From positions 19,717-83,716 of the forward strand of contig JAYWEM010000001.1 in assembly GCA_043779265.1 (NCBI GenBank): a stretch of DNA of 64,000 nt, given 5' to 3'. The position numbers are program-made. This document shows, in pieces, positions 57,001 to 60,000 of this stretch; positions within the stretch are counted from its first letter, which is position 1; every line of letters starts with the position of its first letter. This DNA comes from a bacterium. GTDB lineage: Bacteria; Eisenbacteria; RBG-16-71-46.

Positions 57001-60000
57001 CGCGGCACAGTTCGGATTGCCGATGCGCTGGCTGACCGATGGGCAGGAGGTTCCCGCGGACCTCCATGCCGCGCCGATGAGCGGTGCTGCCGCGGCACTG
57101 CAGGGAGGCTTCGCATGAACGACCAGGGAGCAGACCTCCGCATGCGCCGAGAGAGCGTGGCGCGGGAACTGCCGGAGGGGACCTCGGCCTGTGTCGTCGG
57201 CAGCGGCAAGGGCGGTGTCGGCAAGTCGCTGTTGGCGGGCTTGCTGGCGGCGGCGCTCGCGAGGCGAGGCCAGCGCACGCTACTGGTGGATGGCGCACAG
57301 AATCAGGGGAATCAGCACGTCCTGTTCGGCGTGCGGCCGGTCGCCCCGCTCGAGTCACTCATCCTGGGCGAGCGAACGGCGAGGGAACTCGTGGTGCCGG
57401 TGGCACCGGACCTCGACCTCATGCCCGCGGACTCGGGAGCGGAGATGCTCTACGGACTGGGCCCGATCGACCGCGCGCGGCTGCATCAGCGTGTCAGCGG
57501 TCTGTGGGACGACTACGACCAGGTCGTGGTCGATGGCGGGCCGGGACTCGAGAGCGTCGTGCGCGCCGCCGCGATCCGTGCGGATCGCCTCGTCGTGCTC
57601 ACGACGCCCGACCCGACGGCGCTCAGCGATGCCTACGCGCTCCTCAAGATCGTGCATCTGCAAGTGCCCTCGATCCAGATCGGGGTGATGGTCAATCGGG
57701 TGTCGGCCGATGAAGAGGGACAGTTGGTGTTCGACCGGCTGCAGCTGGCCGCGACCCGGTTCCTCGGGCGCGACCTCGACGATCTGGGATGTGTTCCGGA
57801 GAGCGAAATGCTGCGGTCAGCCGCCCGGCGGCCCGGTTCCATGCTCGAGATCGAGAGCGCGGGAATCGAGACGTGGGCCGAGCGGCTCATGCCCACCGAG
57901 GTGGGCATGTCCGGTCTCGAGGGGGATCCGACGAGGGGACTGCCGGCATGACCGACCTGATCGATGCGCTCTGGAAGCGTTATCGGGGGAAAGGCGACGC
58001 GAAAGCGCGCACCGAACTTCTCGATCGCTACCTCGGACTCGTCCACCACAGTGCCCATCAGCTCATCCGCAAGGTTTCGCGTGAGATCGAGTTGGATGAC
58101 ATGGTCGGTGCGGGCAGCCTGGGCTTGGTCCAGGCACTCGAGGGCTTCGACCCTTCGCGCGGACTCGCATTCAGCACGTATGCGATGCCGCGCATCCGAG
58201 GAGCGATGCTCGATGAACTGCGCGCGCGCGACTGGATGCCGCGCTCGATCCGTTCGCGCAGTCGCCTGCTTGGCCAAGTGCGAGCCGATCTCCAGCAGTC
58301 ACTGGGACGTCAGCCCTCCTCCGAGGAACTGGCTCACGCCCTGAAGATCGACATGCCGACGTTCTGGAAGTGGCAGGGGGAAGTCGACACTCGCTACATG
58401 CTGCCTCTCGATCAGCCGACGAGCGGTGACGACGGTGAGATGCGGCTCTCCGAGAGCATCGCCGATCTGCTCGCCTGCGATCCCAGTGACGGGATCGAGG
58501 AGGAGGAGCGTCTGCAATCGTTGCGTGACGGATTCCAGCAGCTCTCCGCGCGCGACCGACTCGTGCTGACGCTCTACTACTTCGAGGAACTGAATCTACG
58601 CCAGATCGGTGAGGTGCTGCATGTCTCGGAATCGCGCATCTCGCAGATCCGCACGCGCGCACTGAAGCGTCTCCGCATGGTCGTCGTCGATGGCGTCGCT
58701 CTGCCGATCGAGGCTGAGGACGCGGCGTGAGGCGTTCGACGTTGCTCGCGGTCTCGATCACGGCACTGGTGCTCATCGTGGCGGGACAGTGGCCTGCGAT
58801 CGTCGGTGACACCGGGATCCGGGGCGTCCGGCACATCGTGTCCAACGTGCTCGCCTGGCGGCCCCCGCCGCGGATCGCCGCGCCCAGGCCCGAAGCCGCG
58901 GCCGAGCATCGTTCCGGACCGACGGGGCTCGCCCCCGAAGCGCTCGCGGCACTCGGCGTGGGCGGTGGAGTGGCGGTGTGCTTCGCGCTATGGGCGGGGC
59001 TCTCCTGGACGCTGCGTCCTCGCCCCAGTCGGCGCCGTCAGCCGCTCGATGCCGAGCGCTGGCTCGCGCGGGATGCTCGCGCGGCGCACTGAGCCGAAGC
59101 GGCAGCTCCTGCCGCTTCAAGCGGTCGGGAGTTCCGTTCCGAGCCTCCACGCACTTCGAGGCGAAGCCTCCAGAACCCCGCCACCGTGTGAGTTACGACT
59201 CCATCGCCTCGGCGGCACATGCCTTGCAATGCACTCCCGGGAGCGCGGACTCCGCCGCGCGTGACGTCTCTGGAGGCCCGCATGTCGCTCGAAGGCATCA
59301 CCAACACCGCGCGCGCGATGACGTATCAGGTGCGCCGTCAGGAAGTGACGGCGAACAACCTCGCCAATGCGAACTCCGATGCCTTCAAGGCGGACCGGCT
59401 ATTCGCGCGGGCGCTCGCGGGCGAGGCGTTCCCGGTCGCGGTGCAGCAGACCGACCTGCAGCAGGGGACGTTCCGCGAGACGGGTCGACCGCTCGATCTG
59501 GCGCTCTCCGGGAACGGTTTCCTGATGATCGCGACCGAAGCCGGCGAGCGACTGACGCGTGGCGGCTCGTTCCAGATCGATCCTCAAGGGCGACTGGTCG
59601 ATGGTCATGGCGATGCCGTGCTCGGTATCGGCGGTCCGATCCACGTTGAAGGCGGAACCCTCGAGGTTCAGGGCGATGGCAGTGTCCTCGTCGATGGAGC
59701 GGTCGCGGGACGCCTCCGCGTCGTCGAGATGAGTGATCTCGCTCAGCTGCAGAAGGAGGGGCTCGGACGCTACGTGTCGCGAGCACCGCTCATCGCGGCA
59801 GACGACACACGCACTCACGTCCGGCAGGGAGCCGTTGAGGAATCCAATGTCGATCCGCTGTTGACCATGGTGGACATGATCACCATCCAGCGCGCGTATG
59901 CGGCCAACGTGGATGCGCTCAAGGCGATGGACGCCGTGCTCGGTTCCATCACGAACGAGGTCGGTCGCGTTCACTGACGCGACGGACCCATGAGAGGGGA

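Follow-up and report, generated by a model that had tools for sequence, protein, structure and literature searches.

The flagellar locus and its sigma-28 gene

The window, that is, the whole stretch of 64,000 nucleotides analysed here, lies on contig C1 of an Eisenbacteria genome (G000) whose assembly comprises 3.43 Mb in 195 contigs (68% GC, 92% complete, 3% contamination). Gene positions outside the Pfam checks come from a hexamer gene caller built for this analysis. The window carries a flagellar cluster of a type that we call system 2, with flhA at 53938..56115 on the plus strand (PF00771 at C1:73834-75783) and, on the same strand, a gene for a MinD/FlhG-like ATPase (57115..57951) that we take to be flhG from its position. 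The 3' end of this gene is overlapped by the start of sigB (57948..58730, plus strand), and the setting is the flhF-flhG-fliA order of a flagellar cluster. The initial annotation had placed a FliA paralogue here; indeed, the 260-residue product scores 230.8 bits against the FliA/WhiG model TIGR02479 (cut-off 189.6), contains regions 2, 3 and 4, and is also placed among the sigma-28 factors by the trees described below.

We name class B the putative promoters of the form TCAAG-N15-CCGA-nn-CT (spacer 16, counted from TCAA to CCGA) and class A those of the form TCAAG-N16-CCGATA (spacer 17). The filament genes of the window lie on the minus strand, with two flagellin copies that are 89% identical (first copy 33625..34440, second copy 32503..33318), and flaF and flbT downstream of them (31538..32321; PF07309, PF07378). 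A predicted class B promoter, TCAAG-N15-CCGAGACT, stands 83 bp upstream of the second flagellin (33401..33428), and a variant with class B spacing, TTCAG-N15-CCGAGAGT, stands before the first one (34517..34544) and is conserved in the relatives G001 and G002. The flgL gene (34726..35592; TIGR02550 above cut-off) is preceded by TCAAG-N16-CCGATACT, with a CT tail and a longer spacer (35624..35652), and the same sequence is found at 31475..31503 before the gene for a FlgM-like anti-sigma factor of system 2 (31075..31383). The latter assignment combines profile, Atlas and position: the top two PDB matches in the profile search were FlgM (E 0.006 and 0.025), the score against TIGR03824 stayed under the curated cut-off, and Atlas gave 0.95 with FlgM-bearing Gemmatimonadota clusters. 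From this gene and the known FliA/FlgM cascade we infer that sigB would be under FlgM control.

Two further sites lie away from the cluster. At the left edge, the gene of a STAS protein (127..486, plus strand), which is a class B target in G002 and G003 too, follows a class B site whose 3' part occupies positions 1..22 on the plus strand, the whole site (C1:19711-19738) starting 6 bases left of the window. At 8424..8452 on the minus strand, TCAAG-N16-CCGAGAAT precedes genes for a receiver-SpoIIE phosphatase and an RsbW-like protein, and in G001 the orthologue bears an exact class B site. A scan of positions 30400-37500 gave no sigma-70 promoters or terminators, and the window had no Rfam matches.

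Two sigma-28 factors of different ancestry

Only two sigma factors of G000 exceed the FliA/WhiG cut-off of TIGR02479; the second, sigA (C18:8543-9415), is about 38% identical to sigB. A single clade of the two was rejected in a quick tree of 48 rows (AU test, p 6e-6), which excludes sigB as a recent duplicate or in-paralogue of sigA, and the word paralogue had to be dropped in that sense. sigB falls into a separate group, supported at 99%, with Gemmatimonadales-labelled FliA, and the sigA tree tracks the families (all sigma-28 trees were quick trees, with no named WhiG1 sequence among their rows).

A sigma-28 match was found in 40 of the 41 genomes of our first sample. In G025, a gene of the sigA type comes after flhB-flhA-flhF-flhG, and the complete flagellar cluster around it includes csrA and flgL. 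This locus has neighbours in common with C18 of G000, where all that is retained is csrA, an flhG-like gene and a short ORF with a match to the C-terminal portion of FlgM. A short FlgM-like ORF was likewise present about 5 kb from sigA in four of the five non-flagellated genomes searched. This makes sigA appear to be a FliA left over from an older flagellar system; it is near-universal in the sample. This older system (system 1, the cluster type of family f2) is intact in f2 and was found nowhere else in the sample; none of the 41 genomes, checked for FlhA, held both flagellar systems complete.

The genes of system 2 are 36% identical to those of system 1 and 52-56% identical within family f1. 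Between G000 and G022 the median identity is 56% for flagellar genes and 56% for sigA-locus genes; since system 2 is as similar within f1 as the sigA-locus genes are, it is old in this family, where it was probably lost repeatedly. A recent transfer of system 2 into G000 is unsupported, given these equal medians and GC3 values of 0.852 vs 0.861.

A second promoter class in G000

The exact motif TCAA-N16-CCGAGACT occurs at 11 places in G000, compared with 2 in total over the other 19 spacers between 8 and 27. All 11 are intergenic (about 10.6% of the genome is), ten carry TCAAG and one TCAAC, and ten lie 32-105 bp upstream of a co-directional gene, a site on C26 having no gene near it. The initial annotation had counted 11 exact sites, ten of them before genes, and these figures were reproduced with independent gene calls. 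Just one site, that of the flagellin at 33401-33428 on the minus strand, is wholly inside the window, the STAS site crossing its left edge. In the 2228 upstream regions we observed ten matches, vs a mean of 0.02 and a maximum of 1 in 410 dinucleotide shuffles, and the sites are spread over ten contigs. In an assembly as fragmented as this one (195 contigs, 3% contamination), the motif might be suspected to be an artefact that arose by chance, through the gene calls or from a bin of mixed origin; however, the shuffles and the spread over ten contigs argue against it, it is refuted by the single-contig genome G022, with both sigmas and both classes, and by the 151-genome test below, and we give it practically no credence.

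For class A, TCAA-N17-CCGATA gave 14 sites in G000, 13 of them intergenic; these sites precede csrA, pairs of HEAT and HD-domain genes, and genes for an HD_5 protein, for a response regulator and for a small GTPase, presumably MglA-like. The tails of the two classes differ: among intergenic TCAA..CCGA pairs, an nRCT tail was present in 15/34 at spacer 16 vs 3/41 at spacer 17 (Fisher p 3e-4). TTCAG-N15-CCGATACT precedes motA and a second HDOD gene. The canonical TAAA-N15-GCCGATAA is absent genome-wide from G000 (0 sites), the flagellin promoters having TCAAG-N15-CCGA-nn-CT instead. A de novo search for 6-mers enriched behind TCAAG was dominated by codon periodicity, with CCGATA and GAGACT near the top.

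Class B sites accompany sigB

Whereas TCAA-N17-CCGATA was found in 41/41 genomes of the first sample, sigB was found in 8/41, and system-2 flagellin in those eight and in the incomplete G002 and G006. The motif TCAA-N16-CCGAnACT gave 93 sites in these ten system-2 genomes (3-15 each) vs 9 sites, at most 2 each, over the 31 genomes without system 2. The exact-site counts reported earlier for four relatives (6, 5, 9 and 1) came out the same in G001, G002, G003 and G020, and the reversed-motif control gave 0 in 40/41 genomes. The three genomes of f2, which lack sigB, bear FlhA and a flagellin that is only distantly similar, and their class B counts were 1, 0 and 1; since these low counts occur despite flagella, the class tracks sigB or system 2, not flagella. 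G026, a sigB-less genome flagged as unpublished, is counted in the tallies and trees, and no conclusion depends on it alone.

The second sample held 151 genomes, each at least 80% complete, sorted by E-value band into sigB-type (E <1e-60) and sigA-type (weaker match), a sorting checked against the tree for the rows of the first sample. A sigB-type match was found in 28 genomes and a sigA-type match in 142. As the genomes are related, the per-genome counts are not independent. For TCAAG-N15-CCGAnACT, the totals were 154 sites over the 28 sigB genomes vs 28 over the 123 without sigB, and at least two sites were present in 25/28 vs 4/123, one of these four being G006, which bears system-2 flagellin. 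The 21 sigB genomes that lay outside the definition of the motif hold 99 sites, and all six genera with both sigB-bearing and sigB-less members behaved as predicted (for example, 4-14 sites vs 0 and 0 in genus g2). The earlier proposal that a second promoter class accompanies the flagellar sigma-28 therefore holds over the 151 genomes and the six mixed genera. The exceptions are the sigB genomes G083 and G103, with no TCAAG-N15-CCGAnACT site, and G007, with one; conversely, G136 has two sites without sigB or flagellin in its assembly. The genome cited earlier as flagellated and devoid of sites (G138) may differ from the G138 of this sample, in which neither a sigB-type match nor a site was found. 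In metagenome loci of Gemmatimonadales-type FliA, which stopped short of the flagellin promoters, several recurring motif matches fell within the flgI coding sequence and were disregarded.

The pairing is one of co-occurrence, and all parts of system 2, an NtrC-like activator and HDOD proteins among them, vary together, so class B might be read by another system-2 factor, for instance sigA with a cluster-encoded regulator, or another sigma. However, the motif is bipartite like a sigma-28 promoter and, at most flagellins, which are the usual targets of FliA, stands about 77-84 bp upstream; no more than two sigmas of G000 pass the FliA/WhiG cut-off, with clade-specific contact residues; and loci of the Gemmatimonadales-labelled FliA cluster without flagellar neighbours show TCCT/TGCT tails too. 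A reader other than sigB appears extremely unlikely to us, and sigB would be the factor that recognizes class B.

What distinguishes the two classes

According to the initial annotation, the -10 element splits the targets between the two sigmas. The second class does exist, but the G of the -10 element is not its determinant and the split is partial. If T-to-G in the -10 alone assigned genes to sigB, with flgM and flgL as a third class, one could explain why the G form makes up 11/13 of the N16-CCGAnACT sites in G000; for the clade this strict scheme is contradicted by G022 (single contig, both sigmas), which has 0 G-form sites and nine TCAA-N16-CCGA[T/C/A]ACT sites, some of which precede flagellin, flgL and a gene for a CheY-like protein. 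Since a genome with sigB does without the exact form, the G of CCGAGACT cannot be the determinant, and orthologous flagellin and flgL promoters differ at that very base, which makes the strict scheme very unlikely. The flgL promoters keep an ACT tail at 7/8 loci, with spacer 17 in 6/8, and the tail of G011 is GACT at spacer 17. Rather than the third variant announced earlier, the flgL and flgM promoters are probably long-spaced class B, possibly also open to sigA, and the flgL promoter of the window (35624..35652) could be read by either sigma.

The marks of class B are the CT tail and a spacer shorter by one base, the G being a lineage preference. We scored 22 of the 23 system-2 flagellin loci, leaving out L278, whose flagellin start was misplaced: a spacer-16 site was present upstream in 21/22, with an nnCT tail in 17/21 (GACT in four of these 17) and CCGATA in 0/21. 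Elsewhere in the analysis, the row G002x was discarded because its coordinates were wrong. The distance from TCAA to CCGA is 16 bases in the sigB class and mostly 17 in the sigA class; the canonical E. coli FliA promoter, TAAA-N15-GCCGA, has the same spacer as class B. Where system 2 is lacking (31 genomes), 10/339 N17-CCGATA and 3/84 N16-CCGATA sites carried the CT tail, vs 16/135 and 16/34 where it is present. The looser TCAA-N16-CCGANRCT had a background of 0-7 per genome and its contrast was gone outside family f1, and the control TCAA-N17-CCGA[A/C/G]ACT formed no clear class (29 sites over 22/41 genomes, 11 in the ten system-2 genomes and 18 in the other 31).

That the split is partial follows from a few spacer-16 promoters in genomes with sigA alone. 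Indeed, the f2 flagellin promoters have spacer 16 (TAAAG..CCGAAAAC and TCAAG..CCGATGAT), f2 also has a spacer-16 CCGATACT site upstream of flgN, and N16-CCGATA sites number 84 over the 31 genomes that lack system 2; in the 15 f1 genomes without system 2, CCGATA sites number 233 at spacer 17 vs 26 at spacer 16. It could then be argued that there is no functional insulation, class B being a preference of sigB, cross-reading broad and timing due to the two anti-sigmas only. The two sigmas have in common a -35 element, CCGA as the core and conserved contact residues, the f2 sigA-only genomes combine spacer 16 with a non-T base at flagellin, the CCGATACT sites suit both sigmas, and the WhiG1 and WhiG2 motifs of Actinomycetota are described as too overlapping to separate (PMC12871210). 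Yet the absence of CCGATA from all 21 flagellin promoters, the near lack of class B sites wherever sigB is missing, even within one genus, and the CT-tail frequencies with and without system 2 all argue for some insulation, and we regard its complete lack as rather unlikely.

Putative regulon and promoter switching

Targets named in the initial annotation stood up to Pfam/NCBIfam in G000: flagellin, STAS, EAL+HDOD and receiver+HDOD genes were confirmed, as were an MshEN/PilB-like ATPase gene followed by pilT, a receiver+CheX gene divergent from motA, and an H-NOX gene followed by an HNOBA hybrid kinase gene. Three additional targets encode a protein without Pfam match, a small protein whose gene is followed by a pilin-like one, and a HEAT protein whose gene is followed by that of a GT2 glycosyltransferase. 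In a subset of 79 sites taken from 16 relatives, 74 were intergenic and 67 lay at most 300 bp from a co-directional gene; motA, flgL, flagellin, flgM-like, HDOD, EAL-HDOD, MCP, CheW, hybrid kinase and MshEN ATPase genes recurred as targets. Strong HDOD matches were absent from the 5/5 sigB-less genomes searched. The reach of the regulon to H-NOX is true of G000 and does not extend further: H-NOX was found in none of the ten other system-2 genomes searched, which excludes it as a conserved class B target and makes it a local recruit of G000.

The pilB-like/pilT operon shows a change of promoter class between genomes. Its promoter is of class A type in 4/4 sigB-less genomes (G157, G024, G016 and G086) and exact class B in 4/6 sigB genomes (G000, G023, G084 and G071), the sigB genomes G056 and G134 having the class A type. 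Since three of the four class B cases were found via the motif, they establish that switching occurs and give no frequency for it.

Candidate specificity residues

In the P. aeruginosa open complex described earlier, GCCGATAA spans -15 to -8, -11A is flipped out and H36 stacks on -7 (PMC12784957). We transferred the P. aeruginosa numbering through an alignment with 9wsf_A. The contacts to the CCGA core and to the -35 element (Y76, R80, R82, D87, R97, R104, S224 and Q228) are conserved, those to the core being kept in both clades, and the SESR.SQ core of region 4 is common to both. Three positions differ: H36 is Q or E in sigB homologues (91% of 120) and R in sigA (96% of 23), S72 is A in sigB vs K in sigA, and I79 is P in sigB vs W in sigA. 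These positions may determine the CT tail and the freeing of the -10 base.

Discussion

Sigma-28 factors are usually credited with one consensus, and coexisting regulons are hard to tell apart; a 2026 preprint on Actinomycetota was unable to separate two of them (PMC12871210). Here, the gain and loss of sigB over 151 genomes makes a code legible, points to residues that may set specificity, and is accompanied by a promoter switch at an orthologous operon. Altogether, the comparative evidence supports the sigma-promoter pairing well, and we consider it real, with the CT tail and the spacer as its likely determinant and a split that appears partial.

The reading we favour, with a probability of roughly 0.7, is that the two sigma-28s of G000, which differ in ancestry, each read for the most part their own version of the promoter. 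sigA, on C18 beside flhG, csrA and the shortened FlgM-like gene, would be paired with TCAAG-N16-CCGATA, and sigB of the Gemmatimonadota-like system 2 with TCAAG-N15-CCGA-nn-CT, in which the -10 T would be freed (G in this lineage), C-8 and T-7 fixed, and the preferred spacer one base shorter. Its own FlgM probably holds sigB until the hook-basal body is complete; once released, sigB would transcribe flagellin, motAB, flgL and flgM along with signalling genes, those for HDOD/EAL proteins included. sigB is probably the only reader of sites without the T, for example CCGAGACT, and both sigmas may read the CCGATACT sites (flgM, flgL, motA). In some sigB lineages the regulon may have captured the resident pilB-like/pilT operon and recruited the H-NOX pair.

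A bolder extension, possible but in our view doubtful, is that the two sigmas form an orthogonal pair under selection. Filament promoters would avoid CCGATA, a few residues (Q/E vs R at the -7 contact, P vs W, A vs K) and one spacer base would set specificity, genes would switch by two or three base changes, and sigA, the shortened FlgM and CsrA would make up a phylum-wide, flagellum-independent switch, set free by a signal that is not the export of FlgM. A flagellar sigma retained almost phylum-wide without flagella, beside a shortened FlgM, does raise the question of the releasing signal, and two promoter classes with two sigmas suggest a way for related regulators to coexist in a cell, although the importance of this would be smaller if both sigmas cross-read freely.

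Among known systems, the closest is the pair formed in Actinobacteria by the flagellar WhiG1 and the RsiG-controlled WhiG2 (PMC12871210). There too a phylum has two sigma-28 clades, one of them co-distributed with flagella, and the targets include c-di-GMP, chemotaxis and pilus genes. The consensus sequences, CTCA-N16-17-GCCGAACT for WhiG1 and T(A/C)AA-N16-GCCGATAA for WhiG2 (the Actinoplanes consensus being second-hand in that source), oppose a CT tail to ATAA, a contrast like that of the Eisenbacteria classes. By the same account, the WhiG regulons are unassignable when both factors are present, whereas the Eisenbacteria classes are separated by presence and absence; and FlgM is missing from most actinobacterial clusters, whereas both Eisenbacteria sigmas have FlgM-like neighbours. 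The RsiG profile (PF22802) had no match in G000 or in the control genomes. In Rubrobacter (type IV pili) and Streptomyces, WhiG is a flagellar-clade sigma that persists although flagella are absent, and its targets are genes for pili and c-di-GMP (PMC8325347); sigA appears to be similar, but retains flhG, csrA and a shortened FlgM-like gene, where these WhiG have RsiG instead.

The canonical FliA/FlgM of P. aeruginosa (PMC12784957; PDB 9WSF/9WSM) and of E. coli (6PMI) belong to the same family as sigB, which shares with them the flhF-flhG-fliA context, a candidate FlgM-like partner, the CCGA core with its contacts, and flagellin and motAB as putative targets. Unlike canonical FliA, sigB would use a TCAAG -35 and a -10 tail nnCT, not TAA, and it has Q/E, A and P at H36, S72 and I79. 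The system resembles the Gemmatimonadota type: sigB groups at 99% with Gemmatimonadales-labelled FliA, and the look-alikes of its FlgM-like protein are Gemmatimonadota clusters. We found no publication on Eisenbacteria sigma-28 promoters or on the class B motif, subscription journals lying largely outside our search.

Two FliA also coexist in bacteria with dual polar and lateral flagella, such as Vibrio with LafS. In Shewanella, fliA1 and fliA2 are of separate origin and each goes with its own cluster, as here (PMC5178100). In contrast to such dual systems, the first flagellum has been lost here, and its sigma would run a non-flagellar regulon. The kind of system is already known from WhiG1/WhiG2 and from the dual-flagellum bacteria; its novel features are a promoter code whose two classes can be told apart, an apparent relic sigma-28 that is near-universal and lies by a shortened FlgM, and a switch of promoter class that can be seen between genomes.

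Sigma-28-type sites and the second sigma-28 locus

The STAS, RsbW-like and receiver-SpoIIE genes of the window (127-486 and 6732-8341) form a partner-switching set, preceded by promoters of class B, the type that goes with the window's sigma-28 (sigB), or near class B; in G003, another genome compared, these genes adjoin. A perfect class-B site without a co-directional gene lies on contig C26 of G000 (5072-5099, minus strand), directed antisense into a dehydrogenase-like gene; it may drive a small RNA or an antisense transcript. Beside the flagellar cluster, TCAAG-N16-CCGATGAG (22796-22824) precedes a group made up of an FHA-like gene, a pair of pilT-like genes and one gene whose product is large (window 17554-22737, minus strand). 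This set is likely a target of sigA, the second sigma-28.

The sigA locus (G000:C18:3246-9415, L124) carries an flhG-like gene, csrA and a short FlgM-like ORF beside sigma-28. A class-A promoter, the type that goes with sigA, precedes csrA and this ORF (C18:3610-3816), of which the C-terminal part alone is left. Sigma-28 at this locus is near-universal and is retained without flagella.

In G011, two spacer-15 CCGATACT sites (C128:1787-1813 and 7680-7706) lie upstream of duplicated 120-aa genes, which flank a hydrogenase-like cluster. A FliA cluster labelled Gemmatimonadales (L144-L191) is located apart from flagellar genes; there FliA is preceded by a response-regulator gene where sigma-28-type promoters diverge, their tails being TCCT/TGCT and CAACT. 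This may be another example, besides sigA, of an orphan sigma-28. L075, a contig labelled Acidobacteriota, carries a sigB that nests among Eisenbacteria sequences, reflecting either mis-binning or transfer.

Flagellar and chemotaxis gene content

In the single-contig genome G022, flhA is in three pieces (C1:1690443-1692397) and other flagellar genes likewise appear split, through assembly errors or decay. When its MCP and CheW-like genes were used in tblastn against the whole G000 genome, no match was obtained, and its CheA-like gene gave weak matches only. The assembly of this flagellated genome thus shows no chemotaxis core, while CheY-like, receiver-CheX and H-NOX kinase genes are there. 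From f2, the family with the intact older flagellar system, neither the protein that we take to be FliD nor the FliW-like protein had a tblastn match in G000.

The flagellin leader

The 5' leader of the second-copy flagellin (window 33316-33400, minus strand) has, across 14 aligned loci, two hairpins, a conserved one of 6 pairs and another, small one at the ribosome site, together with a near-invariant GGCAGAA; covariation is weak. It is possibly an FlbT-binding leader. System 2, the sigB-associated flagellar system, carries flaF and flbT (window 31538-32321), genes known chiefly from Alphaproteobacteria.
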